Source of the DNA: an uncultured Candidatus Saccharibacteria bacterium
GTDB taxonomy: Bacteria; Patescibacteriota; CAZHWT01
DNA: 64,000 nt
Direction: 5' to 3'
Assembly (NCBI GenBank): GCA_964554805.1
Contig: CAZKPX010000002.1
Coordinates: 49,889 to 113,888, forward strand
The position numbers and the translations under genes are program-made. The notes beneath the pieces are model-generated. The model did no database searches. It worked only from the letters and a program-made list of their open reading frames with translations, and was not told where the DNA came from. Of the stretch, positions 34,896 through 63,449 are shown piece by piece; the stretch's first letter is position 1; the number at the start of each line of letters is the position of its first letter.

Positions 34896-35810
34896 ATGAC
34901 AACCAAGACCGAGACTGAAGATATATTCGCTTCGCCGCAAGAGCTGTATGACGAATATGTGGGTGATGAAAGCACCATGAGCGCGGCAAGGTTTTGTGGC
35001 GAAATGTATAGGACTTTTTGTCAGGTCAAAATTGAACGGAAAGAGATTCCTGAAAATGCTACAGAATATATGCTAGGCCATGCCTTTGCTGAGTTTAGCG
35101 GACGCAATCTTTCCTCGTTGCATCAAATTGCACGAGGTGAAACGCCTCTGAATTTGGACATGGCTCGCTTGCTGTTCCTTCATTGGGGATTCTCTGAGGG
35201 TGAAACCGACAAACTAGTCGAAACTACTGAAAAGAAGAACGACGAGTTTGAGCAAGGGTACGAGTTTGGCCATATGCCGCGCACCCTGGTAGGCGGCCTG
35301 CCTCGATACCAAAAGTCAAGAAAACTGGTAGGTGGTCGCCCTCCCAAGCGCAATAGTGTGCCTTCTGAGGCTGAAAGCAGTAAAGAGCCTGTTGTCGATG
35401 AGTCTATTGATGATGTGAAAAGGCCCACCCAAGATAATAATCAACAGCTGAGACAGGTTGTGTCCAAGTCACTTTTGCAGGGCAAACAGCCTTACAGGTG
35501 TCGTGTGATGGTGGTGCAGTCTGCAGTAATTAAGGTTTTCCCGACTCGCGCCGATCTGGATTTATTCAAGGAGCAGATATCTCAGCAAAGCGGGTTGCCT
35601 ATAAACTATGTTGACCGGGCGGTGTGGAACACCAATCCTTCAGAGAAAGCTTTGTTTAGGGTCGCATCCGCCTTGGTTCGCCATGGATGGTTGACTGTCG
35701 AGCAGAGCTTGAATCTGCAAGAAGACTTGCAAGAGATTGAGGACCAGACGGCTAAGCCGCGATGGATATCGCCGATGCTGGAGATTGAGGAGACAGACCC
35801 TCACGAATAG
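34896..35810 (+). CDS. XRE-like HTH protein with C-terminal repeated 'GWLT...LQ.IED..KPR' modules; paralog of 57650..59017
   Basis: N-terminal segment FCGEMYRTFC...SGRNLSSLHQIARGETPLNLDMARLLF resembles HTH_XRE (IS..IERG...P.......LA). The C-terminal module ALVRHGWLTVEQSLNLQEDLQEIEDQTAKPRWISP recurs in the paralog. Start placed at the ATG after GAAGGAG (the track starts at a TTG, 34869). Confidence 0.5.
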   Translation: MTTKTETEDIFASPQELYDEYVGDESTMSAARFCGEMYRTFCQVKIERKEIPENATEYMLGHAFAEFSGRNLSSLHQIARGETPLNLDMARLLFLHWGFSEGETDKLVETTEKKNDEFEQGYEFGHMPRTLVGGLPRYQKSRKLVGGRPPKRNSVPSEAESSKEPVVDESIDDVKRPTQDNNQQLRQVVSKSLLQGKQPYRCRVMVVQSAVIKVFPTRADLDLFKEQISQQSGLPINYVDRAVWNTNPSEKALFRVASALVRHGWLTVEQSLNLQEDLQEIEDQTAKPRWISPMLEIEETDPHE

Positions 35811-36248: not shown

Positions 36249-36322
36249 TTGGCTGATAGTGAAATGGCATCACGACAGGTTTTGGTCCTGTTATTCTAGG
36301 TTCGAATCCTGGTCGGCCAGCC
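36249..36322 (+). tRNA. tRNA-Gln (anticodon UUG)
   Basis: Acceptor TGGCTGA/TCGGCCA with the U1-A72 pair typical of bacterial tRNA-Gln. D-stem gtga/tcac. Anticodon stem acagg/cctgt with loop ttTTGgt. T-arm ctagg-ttcgaat-cctgg. Discriminator G, encoded CCA. Confidence 0.8.
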
Positions 36323-36381
36323 AAAAGAAAGCGCCTCAGCGAAAGCTGGGGCTTTTTCTTTGGTTGTTCGACATTGGATTT
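36317..36381 (+). repeat. Direct repeat copy 1 (tRNA-Gln 3' end plus terminator plus 30 nt); about 90% identical to 40116..40181
   Basis: cagccaaaagaaagcgcctcagcgaaagctggggctttttctttggttgttcgacattggattt aligns with 40116-40181 (3 mismatches and 1 indel). Confidence 0.6.
36332..36360 (+). terminator. Terminator hairpin after tRNA-Gln
   Basis: gcctcagc-GAAA-gctggggc, then TTTTTCTTT. Confidence 0.6.
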
Positions 36382-36426
36382 CGAACCTCTGCGAGGCAGT
36401 AAGGGGCGTCGTGCGAGTGATTTATC

Positions 36427-40115: not shown

Positions 40116-40181
40116 CAGCCAAAAGAAAGCGCCTCAGCGAAAGCTGGGGGCTTTTCCTTTTTGTTGTTCGACCTTGGATTT
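40116..40181 (+). repeat. Direct repeat copy 2 of the tRNA-Gln 3' flank/terminator segment
   Basis: See 36317..36381. Includes the same terminator hairpin (gcctcagc-gaaa-gctggggg). Confidence 0.6.
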
Positions 40182-40190
40182 TGGGTGCAG

Positions 40191-40755
40191 TCAACTAAAG
40201 CGGAACAACGTTGCGCGCAGATAGGCTTGAGGGCTTCTAAATACGTGTGCTTGGTTACACCGGGCCATCCATTCATTAAGGAATACCTGCAGTCTGGCCG
40301 TAGTCATCCCTACATGAGAGAGGATGCGCCGTGCACGTCGCTTCATTCGACTCCACAGATTCTCAATACGATTGGTGCCGGTAAAGTGTCCTTTAGAATG
40401 GTTCCAGATCTCCCGACCATAGCCCATCCATTCAATGCCTGCATAATAGCCTGCTGTGTCAGTAACGACCAAGGTACTTGGGGTGACATGCCTCTCCAGA
40501 AAACCTTGAACCAGATCTGCATCTGGTGCTGAAGGCAATATCTCCACTTTTATCCGACCACTACCTTGCTCAATGGCGCCAATAACAATTGCTTGTCTGC
40601 CGTAGCGTTCTTTGCCAAACCATGACTCATCCAGCTCCACCACCCCATCTAGCTGGTCACGGTCAGGCTCTTGAGGTAGGTGCTCCCTAAAGCGCGTATA
40701 CCAGCGGTTAACCGTTAGTAACCCCGGGGGTTGCTTTCTAGCTGAACCTCTGAGT
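40191..40755 (-). mobile_element. IS1595-family (ISXO2-like) transposase remnant, N-terminally truncated (pseudogene)
   Basis: VELDESWFGKERYGRQAIVIGAIEQG...TDTAGYY...HS.GHFTGTNRIENLWSRMKRR matches the DDE_Tnp_IS1595 domain (VEVDETY.GGK...). The reading frame is open upstream to a stop at ~40755 and encodes only a partial HTH (NRWYTRFREHL). No zinc-ribbon N-terminus and no ATG start. Confidence 0.65.
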
Positions 40756-40922: not shown

Positions 40923-40988
40923 TTAGCACTGGCCAACCTTTCCAGGCCATTTATCTCAGATAGCCGCGTTAGCACTTTATGGAAACTT
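40923..40988 (+). repeat. Composite ~65-bp intergenic element, copy A: two TTAGCACT(C/T)T half-sites flanking a TATCTCAGATA core, second half-site extended as TTAGCACTTTATGGAAA
   Basis: Read directly. Member of a 5-copy family (40.9, 42.2, 46.7, 47.7 and 52.7 kb), all in the same orientation. Confidence 0.55.
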
Positions 40989-41193
40989 TAGCTTTTCTAC
41001 CTAGCGATAAAACGCTTAGATGAACACTATAATAATTTAGGTCTATACAAAATATGGGCTACGGTGATTGATGAACCGTTATTTAATACGGCCAGAGTTT
41101 TGAGTTTGAAGATGACCTTTGAAATATTGACATACTCTGATTTTTCTGGTATGTAGAATGTATTGACCCACCACTAGTCAGGAGAAGGATGAG

Positions 41194-41385
41194 ATGTCAC
41201 CTGCGGACACGGTTATGGGTATTCCGGCGATCTTTATCCCATTCATCACTGGTCTGATTACTTGGATCCTTATAACGGTCTTATTTACCAAGGATGGTGG
41301 CGATATCGGCGATGCATTCGCGGCTGCCTGGGCGCCTGCCATGATTGTGGCTTTTATAACGATTTACTTCTTGGCAAAAGCCTAG
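41194..41385 (+). CDS. Small 2-TM membrane protein
   Basis: 63 aa with two hydrophobic helices, followed by a terminator. Confidence 0.4.
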   Translation: MSPADTVMGIPAIFIPFITGLITWILITVLFTKDGGDIGDAFAAAWAPAMIVAFITIYFLAKA

Positions 41386-41405
41386 TCTGTCCTTTTGTGT
41401 TTTAT

Positions 41406-41447
41406 GCCCCGTCTTCTTGATTGAAGGCGGGGCTGCATTTGTTTTAT
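41406..41447 (+). terminator. Rho-independent terminator
   Basis: gccccg-t-cttc / gaag-g-cggggc stem (41406-41433) and a T-rich tail. Confidence 0.55.
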
Positions 41448-41537
41448 GAGTAAATCTTGTGCTTAATCCTATAATCCTTTATAATTCATTATAGGCTAGT
41501 ATTTAACTAGCAAGACGTCTTATCAAAGGAGACTGAG

Positions 41538-42131
41538 ATGCGCTTGGAGGGACTGTTGTTTCAGGGGCCATACGATATGGCGGATGCTTTGACGGCGGCA
41601 AAAGTATGTCTGGTGCTTTGGCTTGTGGCTCTTGCCTCGGTAGGTTGTTTTATCTTCATTCAACGTGCCACGTTCCAACCACAGAGTTACTTCACCGACA
41701 ACCTGCTGGCAGCGCTGGGTAATCTCATCTTGTTTAGCCTGCTTGTGTTCGTGTTGATCGGAGTGGAATCGATATTTTTGTGGGGAGACAAGCCTGTCTA
41801 CACGATGCAGGATATGACCCAGGCCAACTTGTGGCCGTGGATCATCGGTCACTTGCTTGCAGGAATTGTATTACAGATGCTAGTAGTGGATAAATGGGGG
41901 TATGGGCAAATGAACACTCTCATTTTTTACTCAGCTGTTCCCGTGGCCGTTCCTCTGGTCGGTTTGATTTACCTTAGTATGCTGTGGTGGCCAGGCTTGT
42001 TCACCTTTCCAGTGCTAACAGCGACCGTCATGGTATCTCAAACTGCTGTTGTTGGTATATTAGCCGTTCCACTTGGTCTCATGGCCGTTTGGTTTGTAAT
42101 TTTAGGGCCATTGAAATGGTCTCTGAGCTAG
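41538..42131 (+). CDS. Polytopic membrane protein of unknown function
   Basis: 197 aa, 5-6 TM helices. Confidence 0.45.
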   Translation: MRLEGLLFQGPYDMADALTAAKVCLVLWLVALASVGCFIFIQRATFQPQSYFTDNLLAALGNLILFSLLVFVLIGVESIFLWGDKPVYTMQDMTQANLWPWIIGHLLAGIVLQMLVVDKWGYGQMNTLIFYSAVPVAVPLVGLIYLSMLWWPGLFTFPVLTATVMVSQTAVVGILAVPLGLMAVWFVILGPLKWSLS

Positions 42132-42227
42132 CCCATGCTGAGCCTCATTCTCTGACCAGGGAATGAGGCTCTTGTTGCAAGAAGGCAGTCTCAAGTATCT
42201 TTTTCATAAAATCTTTGATTTTCCACA

Positions 42228-42294
42228 TTAGCACTCTCCCCTGTTCTTAAGGTGATTATCAGAGATAAGTTGGTTAGCACTCCATGGAAATTTT
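42228..42294 (+). repeat. Composite intergenic element, copy B (ATTAGCACTCTCCCC...TTATCAGAGATAA...TTAGCACTCCATGGAAATTTTG)
   Basis: Same architecture as copy A. Lies upstream of the 42375 gene. Confidence 0.55.
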
Positions 42295-42374
42295 GGTTTT
42301 AATGCAGATAGCTAACTTGTTCTAGGTTGAACATCTAATTCGCACTTTTATTTGATTGTGCAAAGTAGTGTCAG

Positions 42375-42890
42375 TTGCAAATATCAAGTATCATATGTGG
42401 TATGAAGATATTGCACGAAGCAAGAAAGCAACTACTATCAAATTGGTATGCCTGTAGATTAGTATCTGGAAAAAGGAGTGCTCAATATGGCATTCGCTTT
42501 AGTTATCCGGTATTTATTTTACTAGTGGGATTGAGTATATTCTTTGTTAATCCGGCTGCCTTGTTATTAGCGGTGATTATTGCGTTGTTTGCGATAATTC
42601 TGCCTATGCACCCCTTAGATTATGTATATAACTTTGTCTTTGCTAGGTTTGCAGGACTAGCGAAGATTCCGGGTCGAGGAACTGAGTTGGCAGTTTCTTC
42701 GAGCATCGCTGCGGTGTTTAGTTTGGTAGTGATTGGACTGATATTGCTTGGTGCTCAGATAAACTTTGCCATCATGGCGTTGATCTATGTTGCAAGCAGC
42801 GTATTCTTTATTGTAGTTCTGTTGTTTAAGGATGACTTTTCTATGCACTCTCTCTTCGGTTGGCTCATAAAGAGCGATACAAAGCCGTGA
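42375..42890 (+). CDS. Membrane protein of unknown function (4 TM)
   Basis: 171 aa with hydrophobic helices. TGA stop. Start uncertain. Confidence 0.45.
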   Translation: MQISSIICGMKILHEARKQLLSNWYACRLVSGKRSAQYGIRFSYPVFILLVGLSIFFVNPAALLLAVIIALFAIILPMHPLDYVYNFVFARFAGLAKIPGRGTELAVSSSIAAVFSLVVIGLILLGAQINFAIMALIYVASSVFFIVVLLFKDDFSMHSLFGWLIKSDTKP

Positions 42891-43050
42891 ATATGCAAGG
42901 TTAGTTTTATTAGACCATCGACTGCGATATTTATAGGCATTGAAACACCTCAGGTTCCACCTGGCCTAGGCGGTTCAGGTGGAGCCTGAAGTCGGAAAAC
43001 TGTGTCGTAGATAAAGTTGAAGCGACACCCGGGAGGGGTGTCGCTTATCG

Positions 43051-43548
43051 TTAGGGCGATCGATTTTGGAGTTGCTCGATTTTTAGATCGAGGAGTGCGA
43101 GGTAGTTGCTGCACACACTCCGCCAGGCTTGCAACTCAGCCACAGCTTCCTCGGTCGATAAACTATTTATGATGAGGTTTATCTGATCAGGGCTCCGGAC
43201 GGCTGGAGTTAACGTATCCCCCGTATCTGTTGCTGGAAGCCACAATGATGATTCAGGTAGATCTAGGGCTTCAGCGAGATTAGCGACAATCTCCATAGAA
43301 GGAGATCTGGTAAAATTTCGCTCTAAGCGGCTAAGGTAACCCGCAGACACATGAGAAATAACTGCCAGGTCTGAAATAGTCATCCTTCGCTCTAGTCTTT
43401 TCTCCCTTACAATATCTCCGTTAAAAACACGGTAACTGTGCAAACCCCCGGCTCGGAGATGGCTATTTGCCGGCAACTCTTTGCGGCCTCTTTTCATGAT
43501 TACTCTCCCTGCAGGACAAACGAACTGATGACTAACGGGATTATACAC
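43051..43548 (-). CDS. XRE-family HTH transcriptional regulator
   Basis: RLERRMTISDLAVISHVSAGYLSRLERNFTRSPSMEIVANLAEALDL is a classic HTH_XRE helix-turn-helix with the ...LS..ER motif. Confidence 0.6.
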   Translation of the reverse strand: MYNPVSHQFVCPAGRVIMKRGRKELPANSHLRAGGLHSYRVFNGDIVREKRLERRMTISDLAVISHVSAGYLSRLERNFTRSPSMEIVANLAEALDLPESSLWLPATDTGDTLTPAVRSPDQINLIINSLSTEEAVAELQAWRSVCSNYLALLDLKIEQLQNRSP

Positions 43549-43631
43549 GTCTTATAGTAAATATCAAGTGAATAGCCCTTTTAGATGCTACGAAGGGTAA
43601 AGATAGTTGATGTCTCTGATATAATGGGCGA

Positions 43632-44273
43632 ATGACTGATGAATTAAAAGAAGTTTTGATTAGCATTGCCACGGAGCGCATACCGAACGACGACCCTTCG
43701 CATGATATTGAACACACGCTTCGCGTTTTGGCAAATGCGTTGCGGATTGCGGATGAGGAGCAAGCTGATATTGATGTAATTATTCCAGCAGCCTTGTTTC
43801 ACGATATTATTACTTACCCCAAGAATGATCCGAGGTCGCTGAATGCTCAGGAAGAAAGTGCGCAGATGGCTCACAGTATTTTGACAAACTTGCCGGAGTA
43901 TCCGGTAGAAAAAATACCAGCTGTGATGGAGGCTATTCTGTTGTGCTCTTTTACCAAAGGGGTTGTGCCGGAACTGCTTGAGGCAAAGATTTTACAGGAT
44001 GCTGATGGACTAGAGGCTACCGGAGCCATTGCAGTTATGCGAACCTATGCATCGACCGGACAAATGCAGCGACCTTTTTATCATCCGACTGATCCGTTTG
44101 GTGTTAATAGACAAACAGATAGTAAGGCCTATGCCCTTGATTTGTTCTTTGATCGATTATTGAAGGTGGAGGGTAGAATGCATACGCAATCTGCTAAGCA
44201 CATAGCTCAGCGCCGAACAGTCTTTTTGTATGAATTCCTAGAAGAATTTCGGTTGGAGCTTGAAGGCAAGTAG
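43632..44273 (+). CDS. HD-domain metal-dependent phosphohydrolase
   Basis: His...HD...D metal-ligand pattern: HDIEHTLRV, ALFHDII and LQDADGLEA. Confidence 0.6.
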   Translation: MTDELKEVLISIATERIPNDDPSHDIEHTLRVLANALRIADEEQADIDVIIPAALFHDIITYPKNDPRSLNAQEESAQMAHSILTNLPEYPVEKIPAVMEAILLCSFTKGVVPELLEAKILQDADGLEATGAIAVMRTYASTGQMQRPFYHPTDPFGVNRQTDSKAYALDLFFDRLLKVEGRMHTQSAKHIAQRRTVFLYEFLEEFRLELEGK

Positions 44274-44308
44274 GTTTCTTAATATACTGGCATGTTACTA
44301 TTTAAGCT

Positions 44309-44827
44309 ATGAATAATCCATATGATTTTCAAAATGTGGTGGCGGCTAAGTTGTTGATTAAGAAGGGTGATCAGATATTACTGTTGCGTGAACCGTTGAC
44401 CAATGAGTGGATGCCGGGGAGGTTGGGATTGCCTGGAGGGAAGCCGGTGCTTCATGAAAGTTTGTCTGAGGCATTGCAGCGAAAGATAAAGACTGAAGTC
44501 GGCATCGCTATTGATATTAAGGGCTTGGTTAAGGTCATTGATATTATTATGCCTGAGAAAACTGTCTATCATTTTGTTATTGCGGCTGAGTATGTTGCGG
44601 GTGATATTGATGTGGAAGCGATTGAAGCTGATGATATGCGCTGGTTTACGATCGACGAAGTCAGTAAGCTGTTAAAAAATGATTTTACTGAGTACTACAA
44701 CGACGAAGTAATTAAAGATTATTTAGCAGGAATGCTGAACGCAATCCCTATGAGTGTTTTTGTTGAGCAAGATAATAGAACAGATGAAATAATGGATTGG
44801 ATGGTGAAGGGTCAAAGCATCCGATAA
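44309..44827 (+). CDS. NUDIX hydrolase (divergent Nudix box)
   Basis: GGKPVLHESLSEALQRKIKTEVGI fits GX5EX7REUXEEXGU, with K and T at two of the usual Glu positions. Confidence 0.55.
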   Translation: MNNPYDFQNVVAAKLLIKKGDQILLLREPLTNEWMPGRLGLPGGKPVLHESLSEALQRKIKTEVGIAIDIKGLVKVIDIIMPEKTVYHFVIAAEYVAGDIDVEAIEADDMRWFTIDEVSKLLKNDFTEYYNDEVIKDYLAGMLNAIPMSVFVEQDNRTDEIMDWMVKGQSIR

Positions 44828-44898
44828 AGCGGGGATTAATACAAGTTTGCGGTATTGGTTTATATCAACTAAGGCAAGCTGTCTGATATACTAGTTTA

Positions 44899-45357
44899 GT
44901 GCATGCAGGTCAAGATTATATTGGTGTCATAACTCCTTTCTTTTGTCACAATGGTCGTGGTCAGTTTTTGTTTTATCGTCGAGGTAAAGAGGCTAAGGAT
45001 GAGTTGGGAGTGTGGGATTGTAGCGGCGGTTCTATGCAGTTTGGTGAGCAGCCAGTTGAGACGGTGTTGCGAAAACTTAAATCTCAGTACGGTGTCGAGC
45101 CGGTGAATTTTGAAGAATTGCCCGCGCATTCTGTTTTGGTAGATATAGATGGAATTCCAAATCATTGGCTGGCTATTCCATTCATCGTGCAAGTCGATCC
45201 CGAGCAGGTACGAATTGGTGAGCCACATAAAATGGATGAGATAGGATGGTTTGATTTGGACGCATTGCCTGAGCCAATCCATCCTGGAGCAGCTGATATT
45301 TTGCGAACATACAGTGAGCGATTTTCTGCTCATACTAAAAAACAAACAGCGAATTGA
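44899..45357 (+). CDS. NUDIX-fold protein (degenerate Nudix box)
   Basis: GGSMQFGEQPVETVLRKLKSQYGV. The fold pattern is retained but the catalytic Glu residues are partly replaced, so it may be non-catalytic or act on unusual substrates. Confidence 0.45.
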   Translation: MHAGQDYIGVITPFFCHNGRGQFLFYRRGKEAKDELGVWDCSGGSMQFGEQPVETVLRKLKSQYGVEPVNFEELPAHSVLVDIDGIPNHWLAIPFIVQVDPEQVRIGEPHKMDEIGWFDLDALPEPIHPGAADILRTYSERFSAHTKKQTAN

Positions 45358-45458
45358 GCTGTACCGTGGTTAAATATTTTACTAGTATAGGGAATGCTAG
45401 GCAGTGTGTAGCTAGATGGGCATTCGTGCTCATTGCTGAGCAGAATGCCCATCTAGGC

Positions 45459-45959
45459 TTAGATCCAAGCTTGATCCAGGAGGTAATCTGGGAGCTTGAA
45501 TTCTGAATGGTTCCAAGCTACCTGCGGGCTGGTCCATTCTAGGATGCTTGCCCCGGTCGGGTCATAATTCTTAAGGCCTGGAGTGCTCCACCAGTAGGGG
45601 CTCTTTTGCGCGAGAACCGCAAAAGTAATGGCAAAAACAGAACTTGGCTTCTCACTATTCCCCGGATTGATTCCTGGGTCAACATAGAGTTCCAAAGTTG
45701 CTGTAACAAAGGTCGCTACCTCGGATTCAAACACAAAATAGTCCCTGGTTTCATCTCCCCACTTGGGATTGAAGTGAATATACACCTTTGCAATGCCGGT
45801 CAACTTGTATTGACTGCGCAGCTGATTGATTCGTCGCTCAACCTTTTGGCTGGCTAATGCCGTCAGGTCATTCGGCTTGGTGTTCACTTTGTCTATGCTC
45901 CTTAGCTCGGTGCGACTGCGCAACTGCGCAGTAATCTTCCCCGAATGGAAGATGATCAC
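45459..45959 (-). CDS. Hypothetical protein
   Basis: 166 aa, no recognisable motif. It is the only minus-strand gene inside the NUDIX cluster. Confidence 0.35.
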   Translation of the reverse strand: MIIFHSGKITAQLRSRTELRSIDKVNTKPNDLTALASQKVERRINQLRSQYKLTGIAKVYIHFNPKWGDETRDYFVFESEVATFVTATLELYVDPGINPGNSEKPSSVFAITFAVLAQKSPYWWSTPGLKNYDPTGASILEWTSPQVAWNHSEFKLPDYLLDQAWI

Positions 45960-46006
45960 TCGACATTATCACTAGAAATGGATACTGTCAATAAATACTA
46001 CAGCAG

Positions 46007-46642
46007 TTGAAGCCTGCTCTGCGGTACTTCTGTTATAATCATCTTATGAAAATAAACTTTGAGTTGCCTAGTGATGGGTTGATGCATCGATATTGTTTTA
46101 GTTGTTTGAAGGAAGGGGCCAAGCAGGTAAAGATTGATGGGATAACTCAGTATCATTGCGATGCATGTGGGCAGGATAATGGACGAGCGATTTACTTTGA
46201 TAAGCATAAGGTATGGCTCGATGATCAGCGAGAACTGTGGCATGAGTCGGCTGGGGTGTTTGTTCGTCGAGCAGATGGGAAGTTTTTGTTTTTTCAAAGA
46301 ACCGAGTACCCATTATATTTAACCGTGCCATCTGGTCATGTAGATCGAGGCGAAGATCCATCAGTGGCAGCTGCTCGTGAGTTGGTCGAAGAAACTGGCA
46401 TCATTGGTAGTCCTGTATTGATTGGAACTTCTGATATTGTTGGAGATTCATGTAGTGCCGGTGCGGATGCTCATAAGTGGCATGTTTTCTTATTGAAGCT
46501 TGATGGTCCGAATAGGCAAGTAGAAATACTCGAAGAGGGTGAAAAGGCGCTATGGTTGACATTGGCAGAAGCAAAAGGTCAAGGCATGGTGTTTGTTGTA
46601 GAAAAGGCTGCGGATCTGTTTGGGAAACAGCTTGAATCTTAG
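46007..46642 (+). CDS. NUDIX hydrolase with an N-terminal zinc ribbon (NudC/NADH-pyrophosphatase-like architecture)
   Basis: CFSCLKEG...HCDACGQ zinc ribbon, then the canonical Nudix box GHVDRGEDPSVAAARELVEETGI. Alternative start at ATG 46036. Confidence 0.6.
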   Translation: MKPALRYFCYNHLMKINFELPSDGLMHRYCFSCLKEGAKQVKIDGITQYHCDACGQDNGRAIYFDKHKVWLDDQRELWHESAGVFVRRADGKFLFFQRTEYPLYLTVPSGHVDRGEDPSVAAARELVEETGIIGSPVLIGTSDIVGDSCSAGADAHKWHVFLLKLDGPNRQVEILEEGEKALWLTLAEAKGQGMVFVVEKAADLFGKQLES

Positions 46643-46664
46643 GCACTTTCCATATCAAAATTGA

Positions 46665-46730
46665 TTAGCACTCTACCCTGTTTGAGATCTTGCTATCTCA
46701 GATAAATGATTTAGCACTCTATGGAAAGTT
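46665..46730 (+). repeat. Composite intergenic element, copy C (GATTAGCACTCTACCC...TATCTCAGATAA...TTAGCACTCTATGGAAAGTTG)
   Basis: Between two NUDIX genes. A sigma70-like promoter (ttgtct...tatataat) follows immediately. Confidence 0.55.
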
Positions 46731-46789
46731 GTCTTGTATTCAAAGTTATCCCATGGTGTATATAATGAGGCTTATTAGGGAGTTTTTGA

Positions 46790-47323
46790 ATGCCACATAT
46801 ACATATTGAACCTGGTCAACATGATCATACGGTGAGCGCTTATATTGTTCGAGTTGATGGTGATGAACCTCGACTGCTTCTGCACCGGCATAAGAAGCTG
46901 GGGGTGTATATGCAGATTGGTGGGCATATTGAGCTGGATGAAACACCTTGGCAAGCTATCTCGCATGAACTGCGTGAGGAGACTGGCTATGAGTTGGATC
47001 AGCTGGAAATATTGCAGCCCAAAGAGCGACTGTTAAAACTGTCTGGTGTGGACTCTCATCCGTTGCCGTTTAATCACAATACTCATGCGGTGGGAGGTAG
47101 CGATCATTTTCACACTGATATCACTTATGCATTTGTGGCGACCGAAGATTCACGGATTGATCTGGAAGAGGGCGAGTCAAGCGATATTAAATTATTTACC
47201 AAGGCTGAGTTGCAGGCTCTTTCTGCAGAAGAAATTTATGAAAATGTTCGCGAGCTGGGCGTGTTTGTACTAGAGGTGATTTTGGATGCCTGGAATAGGA
47301 TTCCAGCCACCAATCTTCGGTAG
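46790..47323 (+). CDS. NUDIX hydrolase
   Basis: Canonical Nudix box GGHIELDETPWQAISHELREETGYE. Confidence 0.65.
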   Translation: MPHIHIEPGQHDHTVSAYIVRVDGDEPRLLLHRHKKLGVYMQIGGHIELDETPWQAISHELREETGYELDQLEILQPKERLLKLSGVDSHPLPFNHNTHAVGGSDHFHTDITYAFVATEDSRIDLEEGESSDIKLFTKAELQALSAEEIYENVRELGVFVLEVILDAWNRIPATNLR

Positions 47324-47530
47324 AAGAGTTTATTTAGGCAGGTACGTATTAATACTTAGCATTGCTGCTCGAAGGTAGTGTTGGTTTTGTCGGACTAATT
47401 TCTTCAAATGAGAAAAGGTGGAGCTGGCGAGGTGCTAGTCTGTGGCCCTCGGAATTGAAGCGTAGTGTCGTTGTTGCACGGCGCCATGTATGGGTATATT
47501 GTTATATTGAAATATACTTGAGTTCATTTT

Positions 47531-47710
47531 ATGTTTTCGCGCAAATTTCTTATTTACCTTGGTGTGATTGTTGGGTCGGGATTGGGTAGTCTGGTGCCAA
47601 AGTTGTGGGGGGCGGGGTTGTTATCCAGTTGGGGGATCCTGTTTAGTAGTGTCGGTGCTTTTGTGGGATTTTATGTGGGATATAAACTGGGAGAAATGAT
47701 AGAAGGTTAG
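47531..47710 (+). CDS. Small hydrophobic protein (59 aa, 2 TM), below the ORF-track size cut-off
   Basis: ATG 47531 ... TAG 47708-47710 encodes MFSRKFLIYLGVIVGSGLGSLVPKLWGAGLLSSWGILFSSVGAFVGFYVGYKLGEMIEG. Gly-zipper-like helices. Repeat copy D begins 4 nt after the stop. Confidence 0.35.
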   Translation: MFSRKFLIYLGVIVGSGLGSLVPKLWGAGLLSSWGILFSSVGAFVGFYVGYKLGEMIEG

Positions 47711-47713
47711 TCG

Positions 47714-47781
47714 TTAGTACTCTGCCCCACTTTGGCTTTTGTATATCTTAGACAAGAGGGTTAGCAGTCTATGGAAATTTT
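47714..47781 (+). repeat. Composite intergenic element, copy D (GTTAGTACTCTGCCCC...TATATCTTAGACAA...TTAGCAGTCTATGGAAATTTTG)
   Basis: Most diverged copy. Lies about 330 bp from the 3' end of the giant minus-strand gene. Confidence 0.5.
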
Positions 47782-48115
47782 GTAATTTCTACGACAGGCA
47801 AGCTAGGCGTGTTGGGATGCACGCCCGGGAGGGGTGGGAATTTTGATTGGCACGGAAAAAGGTGTGGACTTTGCTGAAAAGGTTAACTTTTTGCCGCTAG
47901 GCATGGCCACTTCTCCTGAATTGTGAAAGGGCTGACAATCTGACAATTTGCCGTTAGGCTGATGTATTATAGGTTATTCTGAAGTAACTTTCAGCAGAAA
48001 CTACAACGCTCTATAACATCTCACATTGCAGGTGGTACTATTCGTATATTTCAAATTTGAAATTTGGGGTACTGGAAGATTAGCTCGTAATTACGATAAT
48101 GAAAACCTATCAGTA

Positions 48116-51100
48116 TTAATGATCTATGTAGCGTCTGCTAAACTGCAAATCTACAGTTCTTTGGTATGAATCTGAGCTTTTTTGAGGACTATCCTTGGCT
48201 TGGACAGCCAGCGCCGTGAAATAACGCAAGAAATTAAGTTCGAAATCGTAGCTTCCAGATAGATGATGCATTGCTTCGTGGATATAAACTTCAAGTAGTT
48301 GCTTCGGATTATTAATCAGTGATTGATTTACTTCTATTTGTGCAGCATCATTTTCGATTCCGAGATAAAGACCTGCAAATGGGTTTAAACTACTGCCGAC
48401 AGAAATATCCTGTTCTGTCATTTGCAATAATTGGTCGATGCGCTGTTCAAGAACATGATTTTCTGCCTGCATATTTCTCGAACGGTACTCGCTATCTACC
48501 TCTGAATCTTCATATTGTTCTCTATGCCAAGCGCGACCAAGATATTCTCTTTTGTCTGGATCTAGGAGCATATCCTTAAAGTAGTCGACTATGACTTGAT
48601 TGACTTGACGCGCATACTGCCCTACTTGATGCTTTTCCTCAGCGGTTAAGTCAATTTGAATTCCTCTAAGTTCTTGGCAGAAATCTTGTGTGGTATAGAC
48701 AAACTTTGATAGCTCTCTAGTTAAATCCTCTGGTAGCCTGATGGCGTTGGACCGTTCGAGGTGGACTTTGAGAGACTCTTCCATCTGAGCATTTTCGGAG
48801 CTAAGACTGGCAATTGATAATATTGCGTTTCTGCCGAAGACTTCATAGTACATTTGTCTCCACATCTCTTTATTGTTCTCTATTCCGGTTAATGAATTTA
48901 CGTTTTCATCTAACAGTTCATATTCGAGGTACTCAACTTGAGGATTGAGTTTTGCCTGAGTGAGAATATGCTTAACTACGGTGCGATCTATTGTTTGAGT
49001 GAGATAGTCTGATGCGACCAGATAGAACTCTGCGGGGTCGATAGCATTTCGTTCACGAGTGTTTATTGTGGATTTTTGCAAGTTGTAGCCCAACATTAAC
49101 GGTGAGGATCTATGCAAACTATCTTTGCCATTAGGTACAAGAAGGTTTTTTTCGAATATTTGGCCCGGTCTATCTAATAGTACTGATACTGCTAAGCTAG
49201 AATGGATCTCTGTAGCTGGCGATATGATGTATTTATCAAGCCCTGCATACCCGGCAGCATCGGTAATCCTGGGGTCTAAAACATCTAGCCACTGCTTCCA
49301 GATTTGCAGTTTTTGAGATAATTGATGAGAATTGCTCTGCTCTGTGATGTTTGGTGACAAATATTGAAGCTGGCTTCGCTGTTCTGGATTTAAAGATTGA
49401 AGCTGTGTGTCGAATAATGAAAATGTTGTTTGAGAGCCAGTTCTTGGCTCATCTTGCCATTGCATATTGTAGCCTAGCATGTCAAACTCCTGCAGCTGTT
49501 GGGTTTCATGATTCATGGCTGATTGCTTGTGACTAGTTGGCTTGGCAGACCAATTACGGGAGCGTAGCTCTAGGTGTATGCCCTGCAGAGTAGCCGAAGC
49601 GGCGAGCATTTTTAAGCCTTCGCCGAATTTGCCTGCGTCGGCATCTGATTTAGTTGTTCTACCGAGATCCGTTAGATAGGGCGTGGTGTAGCCATCTCCC
49701 TGATCCAGTATTGATACACTTATGATGTTCCAGCTTTTGTCTAAGCTTGCAAGTTGTTGACTATCAACTTCCTGAATATGTCCTTCACCATTTGTAACTT
49801 TATATTGTATGGTTGGAAATTGGCCATGGTTGGCATCGATATGATTTTGGATGGCATCTAGCATGATTCTTCTTGGGTCTGCCCAGACCTTGCCCCCATA
49901 ATCCAGGGTGTTATTGGCTGCAATGTACTCTTCGCCTTGATTAATCTCGGTTAATTGATTTGAAAACGGTTCAGATTCATCGCTTAGCTTGAGAGCTTCG
50001 AGCCTTCCATTTAGCATTAGTAGTTCCCCGACAATCTCGAGGCCTACATCGTCATTTACTTGGCCTGAATCTATGACTGGATTACCGTTATGCACGGAGA
50101 CGGTATAGTCCTGATCTGCTAGTGGGGTAAACGAATTGCCCGAAGCCGTTCTGGTAATGGCTACTTTGTGTTGGGATTCAGAAGTGGTTATGGAGAAAAT
50201 AGACGTATGGTTGACTTGCACTGGCAGAGGAACAAAGTATAGAGGCAGACGAGCTTCATTGGGATCTATATATGGAATCGGCTCGCCTGGCGTGAGCAGT
50301 ATTGGTAGCGATTCTTGGTGGGTTGACGAGGCGTCTACAAATTCTAATTGTTGGTTTAACGACAGAAGTTTGCCGGCGAAGTAAAATGGCGCGGTGGGAA
50401 ACTGTTTTCCTATTGCTAAATCAAGTGCCTGTGGGTTGATATTGGCGAAAAATTGTCGTGCATGCATCAGTCTGTCGCTGAACAGTTTAATATTTTCGAT
50501 TGAATTTAGAGTTTTTGATGCTTGAACTAATTCGATAACCGTGACAACTAAATTGTCATGTTGCTCTAGTTCATTTTTATAGCCTATTTGAGGCGACTCA
50601 CCCGCTTCTCTTGAAGCAATTTGGTCTGACAGATTGATTTCTAGTAACTCTGGGTGACGCTCGATTAGTGCCCGTGCAACAAACGTTCCTAGCCTAAGCT
50701 GTAGCTTGTCAGAAAATGACACGTCCATAGATTCCACTTGATTGGCTAACAGAACCACGTCCATAGCTCTGGCATATGAGCTGGTAGGTTGACTATTGAC
50801 ATCAACCATAACTGCATGTTCGTTCATATTGTATGAAAATGGATAATCATCAACAAACATCTCGCTTTGGGTATTGTTAGGTGACTGCAAAAAAATAGCT
50901 TGATCGAGAACATCTGTCACGTCATATGATGTATATTTTTGAGCTATTAGTCGTATCTCAGTTTCTAGGTTTGGGTCAATTGGTTGATAGGTGCCAGTCT
51001 CTCCATTTAGTAATTCGAGAACTTGATCAATGTGGGCAGGTTCGTTGTATATAGACTTGAGTAGTTCTAGTAGGTTGTGTATGTTTGGCCGAATATCAAT

Positions 51101-52549
51101 TAGCTGATAGCCGCGCTGCTCCATTATTCGTCTTTCTTCGAATGTAGCACTGATAGGACAAAATAGTGTCTTGCCTGGAATGTAATTATAAGTGGAGGTA
51201 ATGGCTTGCTGCCACAAATCTTTTTGCGACTGACTGAAGTTTTGCCCATCCGGAAGATTGTTGGCTTCGATTGTGTATGATAGTGGGCTATCTGTATTGA
51301 AGGAGCTGACCAAAAGCTGTAGTGAGGCTAGGTCGTCAATGTGCTCGATAGCCTCATTGACTACTTGCTCTAAGGCAGAATATTGCACGGTGCTGCGATC
51401 GCGACCAGATATGGCCCATTTATTCTTGATGTTATAACTCCAAAGTTGATCGGTTCGGTTTTCTTCGACAAGCAGGCCTTTAACATAGACTCGTCCCGGT
51501 GGTATATTCTCTTCTATTAGGCGACAGCTGGTATCGAGCTTTTCTAATGATAATGAATGGTTGTACTCTAGTACGTACTTTCCTAGTCCTTGATCGTTTT
51601 GCCTGAGATCTAGAATTTGTCTGACATTATGCCATTCTTCCTCTGACATGGTAGCCGAGCTTAAGTCAACTAATGTTCGTGAGCCAAGCATCTTGGAATC
51701 TGTGCCATGCTTTGGTCTCCGAGTGGTGCTTTTGCCTTCTAAGGTTAATAAACCGTTATTTTGTTGTGGACCAAGCCACCAGGATTCGTCGGAGTTTTCG
51801 GATGCGATGCGGATATCGGCTCCGGTGCGATTGAGTTGAGCAACGCTCATTTTTAAACCTTCGCCCAATCCACCGCGTTTGCCAGGATCCTCTTTTTTAG
51901 TAGAGGCTCCAATCATGCTAAGTAATTTGTGATCGAAGCCTGCTCCTTGATCTGCTACTAAATAGCCAACAACTTGCCACTCCTCTGGCTCCAAAACAAC
52001 TCTGTCATACTCTACAAATTTTGATTGACTGCCATTGCGTAATTTTAGCTTTATCGAGGGGGGCTTATAGGCAGCATCAGCTAATTTGGCACGTAGATCC
52101 TCTATGTAGTCGCGATTACTGACTCTTTGCTGGTATATCTTGTCAGGCCAGTCTACGATGCGAGCTAGAGTGTCAAAAGTTCGAAGCTGTTCTTCTGGGT
52201 CTGAAGATAGTTGCAGTTTGGCAAGCTGTTCAAGGATGATGTCGTGCGCTGGATGGCTAGGGTCGAATTCAGTGGCGTCGATAAGCTCTAAGCGGGCCAT
52301 TCCATAGGAGGTGGTATTAGCATCGAGGTGATTCTGTAAGATATCTACGATAGACTGAGACGGTCGCCACGTTTTCTCTCCATAATTTAGATCAATGCCG
52401 GTGGAATGTTCAATAGAAGATATCGGTGAACGCGGTTGATAAATAGGTAAGCTAGAAGAGGTTTGTGGTGGTGTTCTATCCGAATCTTTTGGATGATTAT
52501 TTTCTGTTTGAGTTGAATCTGAGTAACCTGAAGAGTGTTCTGGTGCCAT
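48116..52549 (-). CDS. 1477-aa protein with two tandem GHKL (Bergerat-fold, Hsp90/MutL/MORC/sacsin-type) ATPase modules and a C-terminal HExxH motif; function unknown
   Basis: Each module has a motif I (N-box), a G1 box (motif II, DxGxG) and a G2 box (motif III, GxxGxG). Module 1: motif I VDILQNHLDAN (aa 66-78, nt 52322-52348), G1 DQGAG (aa 200-204), G2 GGLGEGLKM (aa 226-234, nt 51848-51874). Module 2: motif I DAIQNHIDAN (aa 898-907), G1 DQGDG (aa 949-953), G2 GKFGEGLKM (aa 973-981, nt 49607-49633; checked by back-translation). C-terminal HEAMHH at aa 1424-1429 (nt 48266-48280). Ser/Thr/Pro-rich disordered N-terminus. Uninterrupted 4.4-kb ORF. Confidence 0.6.
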   Translation of the reverse strand: MAPEHSSGYSDSTQTENNHPKDSDRTPPQTSSSLPIYQPRSPISSIEHSTGIDLNYGEKTWRPSQSIVDILQNHLDANTTSYGMARLELIDATEFDPSHPAHDIILEQLAKLQLSSDPEEQLRTFDTLARIVDWPDKIYQQRVSNRDYIEDLRAKLADAAYKPPSIKLKLRNGSQSKFVEYDRVVLEPEEWQVVGYLVADQGAGFDHKLLSMIGASTKKEDPGKRGGLGEGLKMSVAQLNRTGADIRIASENSDESWWLGPQQNNGLLTLEGKSTTRRPKHGTDSKMLGSRTLVDLSSATMSEEEWHNVRQILDLRQNDQGLGKYVLEYNHSLSLEKLDTSCRLIEENIPPGRVYVKGLLVEENRTDQLWSYNIKNKWAISGRDRSTVQYSALEQVVNEAIEHIDDLASLQLLVSSFNTDSPLSYTIEANNLPDGQNFSQSQKDLWQQAITSTYNYIPGKTLFCPISATFEERRIMEQRGYQLIDIRPNIHNLLELLKSIYNEPAHIDQVLELLNGETGTYQPIDPNLETEIRLIAQKYTSYDVTDVLDQAIFLQSPNNTQSEMFVDDYPFSYNMNEHAVMVDVNSQPTSSYARAMDVVLLANQVESMDVSFSDKLQLRLGTFVARALIERHPELLEINLSDQIASREAGESPQIGYKNELEQHDNLVVTVIELVQASKTLNSIENIKLFSDRLMHARQFFANINPQALDLAIGKQFPTAPFYFAGKLLSLNQQLEFVDASSTHQESLPILLTPGEPIPYIDPNEARLPLYFVPLPVQVNHTSIFSITTSESQHKVAITRTASGNSFTPLADQDYTVSVHNGNPVIDSGQVNDDVGLEIVGELLMLNGRLEALKLSDESEPFSNQLTEINQGEEYIAANNTLDYGGKVWADPRRIMLDAIQNHIDANHGQFPTIQYKVTNGEGHIQEVDSQQLASLDKSWNIISVSILDQGDGYTTPYLTDLGRTTKSDADAGKFGEGLKMLAASATLQGIHLELRSRNWSAKPTSHKQSAMNHETQQLQEFDMLGYNMQWQDEPRTGSQTTFSLFDTQLQSLNPEQRSQLQYLSPNITEQSNSHQLSQKLQIWKQWLDVLDPRITDAAGYAGLDKYIISPATEIHSSLAVSVLLDRPGQIFEKNLLVPNGKDSLHRSSPLMLGYNLQKSTINTRERNAIDPAEFYLVASDYLTQTIDRTVVKHILTQAKLNPQVEYLEYELLDENVNSLTGIENNKEMWRQMYYEVFGRNAILSIASLSSENAQMEESLKVHLERSNAIRLPEDLTRELSKFVYTTQDFCQELRGIQIDLTAEEKHQVGQYARQVNQVIVDYFKDMLLDPDKREYLGRAWHREQYEDSEVDSEYRSRNMQAENHVLEQRIDQLLQMTEQDISVGSSLNPFAGLYLGIENDAAQIEVNQSLINNPKQLLEVYIHEAMHHLSGSYDFELNFLRYFTALAVQAKDSPQKSSDSYQRTVDLQFSRRYIDH

Positions 52550-52685
52550 GGTAGCTTAAGTATAGTACGTATGATTTATGCCTGTCTATTGCCGAAGCTG
52601 TGTTGGCTGCATTTCTAAATTTAAGGCGTAGCAACGTCTAAGGTATGGCGGGCTGTCACAATTGACTATTCTAGCGTTTCTATGG

Positions 52686-52752
52686 TTTGCACTCTCCATA
52701 CTCTACGGGCTTCTTATCAGAGATACTACTATTGGCACTCTATGGAAAATTG
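52686..52752 (+). repeat. Composite intergenic element, copy E (TTTGCACTCTCCATAC...TTATCAGAGATAC...TTGGCACTCTATGGAAAATTGG), preceded by an extra partial half-site TAGCGTTTCTATGG (52669-52682)
   Basis: Sits in the divergent region between the giant gene start (52549, minus) and the NlpC/P60-like gene (52824, plus). Confidence 0.55.
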
Positions 52753-55530: not shown

Positions 55531-55746
55531 TCTGCCTAGCTGAGAGAAGAATACAGGGCTCCCCATTCTGGGGAGCCTATTTTGTTATCTATTTTTTGAA
55601 AAATATCACAGTGAATGTCTCTGATATGGCTGCTCGTTGACAGGAGTGTCTATAATATTTTCAATACTATAACCCATAGGACTTATTATGAACGCTACGG
55701 CTAATACCCAGGAACGGGTGGTGTGCATCAAGACATTAAATAGTTT

Positions 55747-57649: not shown

Positions 57650-59017
57650 TTATGCTTCGGTCGCTGGTTGATGACGACTGTTGTCAATCCGCTGAAGTTG
57701 TTCTCGCAGATTCTCATTTTGCTGCCGGGTGAGCCAACCAAAGTCTAGCAAGGCGTGCTGGATGGCTTCGGTGACCGTCTTGCTTCGCAGTTTTCTGGCC
57801 ATGAACCGCTTTACTTGTAGTGGATCTAGGTTGACCAGGCAGGCAAAATTCGTAATGTTCTGCTCTCTTTTGGATTGATCGCCGCGGTAAATTGCTTGAC
57901 CAAGGGCTACCCGAATGATACCAATCCGCAGGGCGTATGCCTGCTGGTTACTGAGTTGGAGTGGCGTTTCAAGGTCTGCATCCTCCTCAAAAGATAGTTG
58001 CGGCGTGACGGTGCGAGGCTTGGAGGTTTGGTCCTCGATGTGTTGTAGTTGACGTTGCAACAGGCTGCGCTCTTCTGCTGATATCCAGTCTCCCTGGCCC
58101 ATGGCGATCAAAACTTTGTATATGATTCTTGATCGCTGTTGGCCTCTATTGAGAACCTCTGCAATTGTCCCGACGGGCAAGCCTGCTAGACTGTTGAGCT
58201 GATCGACAGCCTGATCATCTAGGCTGTATCCTTTGAGAAGCCCAAGAAGGCAACCTCGGACTACTTGTGCTCTGCGATAGTGAGCCATTTGCCCGCTAAT
58301 GGTCTGCGTCTTGTCGAGATGATCGACAGGAAGATGCCATGTTGGATATTGCGCCAATCGGCTTGTCTCCAACTCAAGCGACTGATGCTGCCTGGGGGTT
58401 GAGACTGGTTGCGATTGTTCTGACTTCGATGCTAGCTTGGATATCGGGTCGTCGGTGATTGTATTTTCCTTTGACTCAAGCCGTTGCAGATGTTCGTTGC
58501 CAGTTGTTCTTTGCGGTGCAGATGGCAAAGCGGAACTGGTTGCACGCGGATTTTCGGAGCGGTATTCTTCAGCAGCCAATGCTGACTGAACTGAAGTTGA
58601 CTCGTCGGCCAAGAATCGAGGCAACCTACCCTCGTAAGTTTTGGGGGTGTGACTATGCTCATACTGTATGGGCATTTTGTGAGGGTTACTATGAGAACTC
58701 TCGGCCAATTGCTCAGCCTGAATTTCAGAGAAGCTCCAGCTTCTAGCCAATTCCATGATGGCGTCTGGGGGTAGCGTAACTTCACCTCGAGCAATCTGAT
58801 GAAGGCTGTTTGAAGTTCTGTTGCTACGTTTAGCAAAGGCATGCTCAAGCTCAGCTTCGAATGTGTCGGCAGTGATCTGTCCCAATTCCTGGAGTCGCTC
58901 ACAGAAGATCGTGTATATCTCACTGCAAAACTCAGCAAAGGTCATCGTGGGGCTTGTCAGATATTGATTAAGGATCTGGTGTCGTTTATCCCAGGCGGAA
59001 GTCGTTGCCGTTACCAT
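57650..59017 (-). CDS. XRE-like multi-HTH protein, paralog of 34896..35810, with repeated 'GWL(T)..Q...L+EQLQ.I(E)D' modules
   Basis: N-terminus FCSEIYTIFCERL...SNRTSNSLHQIARGEVTLPPDAIMELARSWSFSE aligns with the 34.9-kb paralog (...SGRNLSSLHQIARGETPLNLDMARLLFLHWGFSE). There are two further HTH-like repeats (LAGLPVGTIAEVLNRGQ..; LDPLQVKRFMARKLRS..). Internal antisense ORFs are spurious. Confidence 0.5.
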   Translation of the reverse strand: MVTATTSAWDKRHQILNQYLTSPTMTFAEFCSEIYTIFCERLQELGQITADTFEAELEHAFAKRSNRTSNSLHQIARGEVTLPPDAIMELARSWSFSEIQAEQLAESSHSNPHKMPIQYEHSHTPKTYEGRLPRFLADESTSVQSALAAEEYRSENPRATSSALPSAPQRTTGNEHLQRLESKENTITDDPISKLASKSEQSQPVSTPRQHQSLELETSRLAQYPTWHLPVDHLDKTQTISGQMAHYRRAQVVRGCLLGLLKGYSLDDQAVDQLNSLAGLPVGTIAEVLNRGQQRSRIIYKVLIAMGQGDWISAEERSLLQRQLQHIEDQTSKPRTVTPQLSFEEDADLETPLQLSNQQAYALRIGIIRVALGQAIYRGDQSKREQNITNFACLVNLDPLQVKRFMARKLRSKTVTEAIQHALLDFGWLTRQQNENLREQLQRIDNSRHQPATEA

Positions 59018-62881: not shown

Positions 62882-62938
62882 TAATTACGGAAGTTAGTTT
62901 TACTAGTTTTGCGAGACTTTATCGCTTATATTTACCAT

Positions 62939-63277: not shown

Positions 63278-63379
63278 TTTCTTGAGTTCTGGTTCTAGGC
63301 AAGGGGTATTGTAGGAAAGATTATCCCGAGCAAACCGTCTTTAATTTGCTAGATTAAATAAAATACGTGATTTAAGTGA

Positions 63380-63423
63380 TTTAAGATTTAATCCCGCCTA
63401 GGCGGCTGGGATTAAATCTTAAA
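63380..63423. repeat. REP-like palindromic element, second copy: 16-bp perfect inverted repeat tttaagatttaatccc / gggattaaatcttaaa with loop gcctaggcggct
   Basis: Shares the AGATTTAATCC(C)...GGATTAAATCT core with 388-439. Preceded by direct gatttaag repeats. Lies between the two copies of the local tandem duplication. Confidence 0.6.
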
Positions 63424-63449
63424 TCAAGAACTATCGCACCGGAGGCGAT

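Follow-up and report, generated by a model that had tools for sequence, protein, structure and literature searches.

Five copies of a composite element of about 65 bp, all on the + strand (starts 40923, 42228, 46665, 47714 and 52686), were found in a 64-kb stretch of DNA, hereafter the window, whose host is an uncultivated member of the candidate phyla radiation (CPR)/Patescibacteria. Judging from the sequence, we read the element as a composite binding site for one or several lineage-specific regulators, which would control several transcription units of the gene island at 40.9-52.9 kb; we give this reading an even chance of being right. The five positions and their single orientation had been noticed in an earlier, sequence-only reading of the same DNA, and both were recovered by a pattern scan and by an independent repeat search.

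Architecture and conservation of the element

As seen in anchored alignments, the element is made of blocks at fixed spacing. These are, in order, a first half-site (HS1), (G/A)TTAGCACTCT, together with a C-rich run of 3-4 nt; a first spacer of 19 nt (20 nt in copy D); the core TATCnnAGATA, an 11-bp palindrome of the form TATC-N3-GATA; a second spacer of 6 nt; a second half-site (HS2), TTAGCACTCT; and a tail, ATGGAAAnTT. The distance from HS1 to the start of the core was 29, 29, 29, 30 and 29 nt in copies A to E, respectively, and that from the core to HS2 was 17 nt in all five. Start to start, the half-sites are 46 bp apart (47 bp in copy D); the spacing had been put at about 45 bp before, which was slightly off. 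A perfect TTAGCACTCT was present in 3 of the 10 half-sites, the other 7 carrying 1-2 mismatches, and copy C was the only one in which both half-sites were perfect. The copies are as follows.

Copy A, 40923..40988, + strand: HS1 40923-40932 (TTAGCACTGG); core 40952-40962 (TATCTCAGATA); HS2 40969-40978 (TTAGCACTTT); tail 40979-40988 (ATGGAAACTT)
Copy B, 42228..42294, + strand: HS1 42228-42237; core 42257-42267 (TATCAGAGATA); HS2 42274-42283; tail 42284-42293
Copy C, 46665..46730, + strand: HS1 46665-46674; core 46694-46704; HS2 46711-46720; tail 46721-46730
Copy D, 47714..47781, + strand: HS1 47714-47723 (TTAGTACTCT); core 47744-47754 (TATCTTAGACA); HS2 47761-47770 (TTAGCAGTCT); tail 47771-47780; the extra nucleotide lies in spacer 1
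Copy E, 52686..52752, + strand: HS1 52686-52695 (TTTGCACTCT); core 52715-52725; HS2 52732-52741 (TTGGCACTCT); tail 52742-52751

The scan used a pattern of 20 positions, TATCNNAGANANNNNNNTNNGCANTNNATGGAAA, built solely from positions common to all copies. With up to 3 mismatches allowed, it gave exactly five matches in the 64 kb, where shuffled sequences would be expected to give 0.01, so that the remaining 52 kb held no copy at this tolerance. The independent repeat search returned the same five as a single family (D2; 40952, 42257, 46694, 47744 and 52715) that covers the part from the core to the tail. The earlier statement that no copy occurs in the first 35 kb was confirmed, as there were zero matches outside 40.9-52.9 kb.

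Pairwise identity between the copies was 84% in HS1, 84% in the core, 84% in HS2 and 91% in the tail. On the other hand, it was 35% in spacer 1, 22% in spacer 2 and 30% in the 40-nt flanks, which is the random level. Blocks at 84-91% beside spacers and flanks at 22-35%, with a spacing fixed within 1 nt, suggest selection on contact sites rather than recent copying.

Position of the copies relative to genes and promoters

According to the gene calls, all five copies are intergenic, in a stretch (40.9-52.9 kb) that is about 20% intergenic. It had been claimed that the copies mark the intergenic regions of the island; they do lie between genes, but only 5 of about 12 intergenic regions at 40.9-52.9 kb hold one. 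For four of the five copies (A, B, C and E), a + strand gene begins 60-206 nt past the end of the element (41194, 42375/42402, 46790 and 52824), in agreement with what had been noticed from the letters. Copy A ends 206 nt before ATG 41194 of a gene for a 63-aa membrane protein. Copy B lies past the terminator hairpin of the gene for a 197-aa protein and 81-108 nt upstream of the gene for a 171-aa membrane protein, whose start is either TTG 42375 or ATG 42402. Copy C begins 23 nt past the stop of the NUDIX gene at 46007-46642 and ends 60 nt before the NUDIX gene at 46790. Copy D begins 4 nt past the stop of the gene for a 59-aa protein, and a terminator-like hairpin (47784-47845, z=-2.0) comes after it. 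Copy E is in the divergent region between a giant gene on the minus strand (ATG 52549) and the NlpC/P60-like gene (ATG 52824); gene calls thus agree with the earlier placing of copy E in the divergent region of the giant gene and of copy D at its 3′ side. Conserved blocks at a fixed spacing, an intergenic position and an orientation parallel to the genes together point to sites of protein contact.

A sigma-70-type promoter was found directly downstream of copy C.

46739..46766, + strand: sigma-70-type promoter, TTCAAA-16-TATAAT

A promoter reading ttgtct-N17-tatataat had been given there before, in which the gap was miscounted (24 nt); the true match is the one listed. If the start site is assumed about 7 nt past the -10 hexamer, HS2 would lie near -57, the core near -74 and HS1 near -103 relative to this promoter.

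A candidate reader of the core

Palindromes resembling the core also occur apart from the element. The motif class T[AG]TC-N3-GA[TC]A had 13 occurrences in the window where 3.2 +/- 1.8 were expected, and its strict form had 5 where 0.9 were expected. The features concerned are given below.

43610..43622, no strand assigned: stand-alone core-like palindrome ATGTCTCTGATAT, also written TGTCTCTGATA
55615..55627, no strand assigned: second, identical 13-mer ATGTCTCTGATAT, intergenic, upstream of the gene at 55688
43051..43548, - strand: gene for an XRE-family helix-turn-helix (HTH) regulator (Pfam HTH_3, E=8.6e-11); probable start ATG 43497, 148 aa

The palindrome at 43610-43622 lies between the XRE gene and a divergent operon encoding HD, NUDIX and NUDIX proteins (ATG 43632), and overlaps the extended -10 element of that operon, TGATATAAT (43617-43625); the XRE gene is served by a separate, strong promoter (TTGATA-16-TATAAT, 43567-43540). 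A palindrome over the -10 element of a target, beside a divergent XRE gene, is the classic repressor layout, suggesting that the XRE protein reads the core. We therefore infer that this protein, whose identity as named in the sequence-only reading was upheld by the HTH_3 match, is the likeliest of the candidates to bind the core palindrome. At 43003-43013, immediately ahead of the terminator hairpin that separates the 171-aa and XRE genes, there is a third core-like site, TGTCGTAGATA. The ATGTCTCTGATAT sites and TGTCGTAGATA probably form a separate, simpler operator class that is related to the core of the element.

Some further features of this region were observed. The HD operon is apparently leaderless, since the extended -10 element TGATATAAT ends 6 nt before ATG 43632, and nearby genes have clear Shine-Dalgarno sequences, so both modes of initiation seem to be used. 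The hairpin at 43020-43046 is strong, bidirectional and terminator-like (z=-4.4 and -5.0), and a 13-mer, CCCGGGAGGGGTG (43029-43041 and 47823-47835), is common to its stem and to the structure that follows copy D.

Candidate readers of the direct half-sites

The direct half-sites had no + strand occurrence in the window outside the composite element, and they would need a reader other than the binder of the core. As candidates, we considered two orphan proteins encoded on either side of the region.

57650..59017, - strand: gene for a 455-aa orphan protein with three helical modules (8-110, 243-330 and 357-448)
34896..35810, + strand: gene for a 304/313-aa paralog of the 455-aa protein, beside tRNA-Leu and tRNA-Gln

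The two proteins share 26% identity (E=1e-33), and their genes are in opposite orientations on either side of the tRNA/island region. Within the 455-aa protein, homology was seen between the two C-terminal modules, and the N-terminal module is helical. A word-based homolog search with this protein returned itself only, and it matched nothing relevant in Pfam at E<=10. An HMMER profile of the pair, run against 1.84 billion representative proteins, retrieved the two and one weak match. The structure model of the 455-aa protein had a predicted local distance difference test score (pLDDT) of 51, and its best fold matches were XRE-type HTH proteins, none of them significant (E >= 1.1). Of the earlier description as flanking multi-HTH paralogs, the paralogy thus stands on the E-value given above, and the HTH nature is weakly suggested. 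As a matter of speculation, the two orphan paralogs would be the only specific candidate binders of the direct half-sites. A more far-reaching version, which we regard as a long shot, is that the element is the recognition site of both orphan proteins and that the C-terminal modules of the 455-aa protein each read one half-site. If this were true, the element would reveal a previously undescribed DNA-binding family with a long composite site that organizes a CPR accessory island, whether by forming a regulon or by marking the cassette boundaries at which recombination takes place.

Proposed mode of action and evidence against it

In the proposed mechanism, DNA-binding proteins would contact three separately conserved blocks at fixed spacing, namely the two direct 10-bp TTAGCACTCT half-sites 46 bp apart, the second of them extended by ATGGAAAnTT, and the 11-bp palindrome between them. 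The XRE-family protein encoded inside the region would bind the central palindrome, and a second factor, for which the orphan paralogs are candidates, would bind the direct half-sites. The units co-regulated in this manner would be the genes for small membrane proteins, the NUDIX gene, the NlpC/P60-like gene and, perhaps, the giant GHKL-type gene that diverges from it.

The sequence-only reading had proposed an operator for a dedicated regulator. Block-wise conservation, intergenic position, orientation and confinement to the island speak for this proposal, whereas the distances to promoters, copy D and the relatives do not, and these belong to a series of results that weigh against our reading. 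First, the nearest plausible -10 element lies about 25-114 nt from HS2, varying by copy, so the promoter geometry is not constant, and copy C alone has a sigma-70 promoter just downstream that passes the scan. Second, copy D has no downstream + strand gene and points at the 3′ end of the giant gene. Third, no copy was found in the relatives' loci that hold 266-aa NlpC/P60-like orthologs (L007-L011; 47-58% identity) or giant-gene homologs (L012-L013; 33-41% identity) by a position weight matrix and a search for half-site pairs, a weak test given how distant these relatives are (41-59% protein identity). The earlier reading had named absence upstream of orthologous genes as a sign against an operator; by that standard, absence from the nearest available relatives disfavors a conserved regulon. 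Fourth, confinement to the island, and with it the claim of an island-wide regulon, is a statement about the 64-kb window, the sole metagenome contig that adjoins it being 1 kb long. Fifth, the HTH nature of the orphan paralogs comes from a low-confidence model and non-significant fold matches. Finally, we know of no regulator family that matches direct half-sites spaced 46 bp apart.

Occurrence beyond the window

Exact matches to the window's proteins were confined to the NCBI contig (270.6 kb) and to the Logan metagenome samples SRR16798008 and SRR16798009. For the element, one genome per species from 185,579 species was scanned with two degenerate patterns; one gave zero matches and the other a single chance tandem repeat (Marinobacter). 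Metagenomes of the Joint Genome Institute (JGI) gave 3 chance matches, all without the half-site TTAGCAC; viral contigs gave 0 matches, and phage and plasmid collections gave matches at E>=2 only. As far as these data reach, the element appears to be restricted to its lineage, as does the flanking paralog family.

One of the relatives (L012; GCA_964536215.1, CAZHWT010000002.1:17800-23600), which has a giant-gene homolog of 41% identity, carries a dispersed repeat of its own. This repeat is about 170-200 nt long, contains GTACGTACACGTTTACGTAC and, further on, GGCAGGCTAGGTGTTCTGAGATAACCACCTGGAAGGTGGT, and is present in 5-6 copies 0.8-2.7 kb apart, between small genes (PhdYeFM antitoxin, CdiA_C and DUF2335). 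It forms two overlapping hairpins with compensatory changes between copies (CACC/GGTG vs TATC/GATA), has no Rfam match, and the array looks like a cassette array. Homology between this repeat and our element was considered and set aside, since they share only a short, chance-like resemblance (GAGATAA, TGGAAGG); it is a different family.

Alternative explanations

The element could itself be a promoter for a non-housekeeping polymerase specificity, i.e., an alternative sigma factor or another RNA polymerase, which we consider unlikely. The 23-nt block GTTAGCACTCTATGGAAAnTTnG would then be the recognition sequence, transcription would start near ATGGAAA, and copy D would give rise to an antisense RNA of the giant gene. 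Such a promoter would account for the best-conserved stretch being a contiguous block of about 20 nt at the 3′ end (84-91%) and for all five copies facing the same direction, toward downstream genes. TTAGCA is similar to a -35 hexamer. In T7/SP6-type promoters, the part from -7 to +4 is CACTATAGAAG, and CTCTATGGAAA matches it at 8 of 11 positions. However, TTAGCA is followed, 18-19 nt on, by hexamers that are not conserved between copies; there is no conserved -10-like hexamer past HS2, columns 13-20 nt downstream differ in all copies, and the columns beyond the tail are likewise not conserved. The sigma-70 scan found no promoter made from the conserved blocks, that is, no -35/-10 pair 16-18 nt apart, and neighboring genes are served by canonical sigma-70 promoters. 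Neither a sigma factor nor a single-subunit RNA polymerase gene was found among the island open reading frames (ORFs) scanned, and a promoter would leave HS1 and the palindromic core unexplained. Promoters of the sigma-70, sigma-54 and extracytoplasmic function (ECF) types inside the blocks were also set aside, by scan and by eye, for want of a conserved -10 and of a match to the -24/-12 pattern.

Alternatively, the copies could be sites of recombination or mobility, either cassette boundaries or decayed relatives of miniature inverted-repeat transposable elements (MITEs), served by a recombinase or transposase encoded elsewhere, so that the region would be a cassette array and not a regulon. 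We regard this as decidedly unlikely. The copies do point the same way and separate groups of genes at intervals of 1.0-5.0 kb; the array begins about 280 bp from a remnant of an IS1595 insertion sequence, near a duplicated 3′ segment of tRNA-Gln of about 70 bp; the gene content around orthologs varies in relatives; and L012 has its unrelated dispersed repeat between small genes of the toxin/antitoxin type. In addition, an inverted TTTCCA/TGGAAA pair of 6-10 nt brackets copies A, B and C and, imperfectly, copy E, and is absent in copy D. The pair is a perfect 10 nt around copy C.

46645-46654 and 46720-46729: inverted pair bracketing copy C, ACTTTCCATA and TATGGAAAGT

Against this, no recombinase or integrase domain was found in the window ORFs scanned (32-62 kb), where the sole transposase is a truncated fragment. 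The palindrome has arms of just 4 bp and a center that varies between copies, which would make a poor core for a tyrosine recombinase, and the assembly breaks in both metagenome samples are not at the copies. A typical MITE, which the sequence-only reading had offered in the weaker form of a MITE-like element, was rejected because the interior spacers are unrelated between copies; block-wise conservation with random spacers fits an operator better. Neither target-site duplications nor long terminal inverted repeats were seen. An attC-like site was rejected as well, there being no hairpin, no inverted core sites (RYYYAAC/GTTRRRY) and no integrase among the ORFs scanned.

That the element acts as RNA is, in our view, very improbable. 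It would do so as a leader, as a small ORF opened by the invariant ATG of ATGGAAA, or as the target of an RNA-binding protein. The copies keep strictly to one strand, as they would for RNA, and copies C and D, which begin 4-23 nt past upstream stops, are probably transcribed by read-through. Folding of the element, however, gave z-scores of -1.2 to +1.4 over both strands, the RNAalifold consensus was 0 and -2.4 kcal/mol, and no Rfam family matched at the gathering threshold or at E<=1; with no stable fold and no covariation signal on either strand, a structured RNA was set aside. The invariant ATG opens frames of 14, 13, 14, 4 and 26 codons, which differ in length and in sequence, and none has a Shine-Dalgarno sequence such as nearby genes have, so that a small upstream ORF was likewise discarded.

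It would be most surprising if the copies were neutral relics of old local duplications with no present function: their confinement to 12 kb and the several NUDIX paralogs, which indicate local duplication, fit such an origin, but decay should then be even, whereas the blocks stand at 84-91%, the spacers are random and the spacing holds within 1 nt, and the genes downstream are not paralogs of one another.

Other identities were tried and dropped. The copies are not an array of clustered regularly interspaced short palindromic repeats (CRISPR), as had rightly been said before, given their irregular spacings of 1305, 4437, 1050 and 4971 nt (1.0-5.0 kb) with genes between. A tRNA-derived sequence was considered because TTAGCACTC occurs in the D-arms of eukaryotic tRNAs, and was rejected because the local tRNA-Gln lacks the motif.

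Comparison with known systems

A composite binding site may be compared first with the operators of XRE and phage repressors (lambda cI, 186 CI, SinR and HigA-type). These, like the element, consist of short blocks at fixed spacing in intergenic DNA, and their regions, like the island, have an XRE gene divergent from a target promoter, a palindrome over the -10 element and several dispersed sites. Unlike those operators, the element does not keep a constant position relative to promoters. To our knowledge, no described operator has this layout of two direct 10-bp repeats 46 bp apart around an 11-bp palindrome with 4-bp arms.

CIRCE, the operator of HrcA, has the form TTAGCACTC-N9-GAGTGCTAA, and its left arm is identical to the half-site sequence TTAGCACTC. 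However, the half-sites of the element have no inverted partner, being direct repeats 46 bp apart, and the adjacent genes do not encode chaperones: those downstream encode small membrane proteins, NUDIX and NlpC/P60-like proteins, and none is of the groESL/dnaK type. CIRCE was thus set aside, as no inverted arm (GAGTGCTAA or GTGCTAA) was present within or near any copy. Since the same 9-mer is found in eukaryotic tRNA D-arms, its identity with the CIRCE arm may be coincidental.

Dispersed repeats such as Correia, BOX, RUP, ERIC and REP elements and MITEs are, like the element, short, multi-copy and intergenic, and they are sometimes modular or serve as promoters or protein-binding sites; the element has weak terminal inverted TTTCCA/TGGAAA sequences. 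The element differs from them in that its interior is not conserved, it forms no stable hairpin and shows no visible target-site duplication, and its copies are strictly co-oriented with genes within 12 kb of the 64-kb window. Integron attC arrays resemble it in that co-oriented sites delimit small groups of genes within a variable region. Unlike them, the element has no inverted cores, no folded bottom strand and no integrase among the ORFs scanned, and genes lie on both strands between its copies.

A loose parallel at the level of the genomic unit is found in halovirus HF2, whose 58-bp class I repeats lie upstream of transcription units and have been proposed to coordinate their expression (PMC8707807). 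Both these repeats (about 60 bp) and the element recur upstream of the transcription units of one genomic unit. HF2 is, however, an archaeal virus with archaeal promoter motifs, whereas the conserved blocks of the element hold no promoter consensus. Taken by its sequence and tripartite layout, the element matches no described family, and as a kind, i.e., a lineage-specific operator-like repeat, it is ordinary.

A defined 65-bp composite site with candidate regulators nearby offers a target for in vitro binding work that needs no culture. Gene regulation has hardly been studied in CPR/Patescibacteria, since they are seldom brought into culture, and a local regulon defined through the element could be among the first for this lineage. 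Should the orphan paralogs prove to be binders, a new DNA-binding family would be added.

Genomic context

The genes at 40.9-52.9 kb encode small membrane proteins (63, 197, 171 and 59 aa), the XRE-family HTH protein, an HD-domain protein, four NUDIX proteins, a 1477-aa protein and the NlpC/P60-like protein, and the GC content of this stretch is a few percent below that of the first 36 kb. The NlpC/P60-like protein has homologs that their source records assign to WWE3, Amesbacteria and Taylorbacteria. PHROGs and PADLOC showed no phage or defense signature, merely generic XRE, NUDIX and HD matches. The giant gene referred to above is the following.

48116-52549, - strand: giant gene for the 1477-aa protein, homologs of which carry HATPase_c (PF02518) and MPN635_N

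The 1477-aa protein itself had no Pfam match; the homologs with PF02518 support the earlier assignment to the GHKL class. It contains two repeated segments resembling a Bergerat fold (DILQNHLDAN... and DAIQNHIDAN...), each followed by G.GEGLKM, and a zincin-like HEAMHH motif at the C-terminus.

ARAGORN detected tRNA-Leu and tRNA-Gln at 36 kb and no other tRNA in the window. A direct repeat of about 70 bp (36318-36385 and 40116-40185; its first 44 nt are 93% identical) begins within the final 6 nt of tRNA-Gln and takes in the hairpin downstream of this gene. It brackets a 3.8-kb segment with genes for a MacB/FtsX permease, an ABC ATPase and an FAD/NAD oxidoreductase-like protein, which resembles an insertion that took place at the tRNA-Gln 3′ end, though no integrase accompanies it. 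The IS1595 remnant, about 280 bp left of copy A, is a truncated transposase gene at 40191-40643 (- strand; DDE_Tnp_IS1595, E=1.6e-13) whose N-terminal part is missing.

The metagenome contigs break at the tRNA-Gln direct repeat. The SRR16798009 assembly also breaks at 47407-47435, away from any copy of the element, where contigs L001 and L003 overlap by 29 nt, which suggests that strains vary in the interval from the NUDIX gene to the 59-aa gene. Tandem ASCH-domain paralogs (62909-63877 and L015), found where the window ends on the right, split the metagenome assemblies into 1-kb contigs.

Two observations concern the left part of the window. A SAM-I/IV riboswitch lies at 12956-13093 (+ strand; 44.4 bits vs a gathering threshold of 41.1), upstream of metK (13105-14250). 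A 784-aa protein encoded at 10462-12816 (- strand) has a C-terminal carboxypeptidase domain of the LdcB/VanY type and a long low-complexity repeat region, for which the DNA repeats are of the GGGGTTGGAGTT type (11069-12261).

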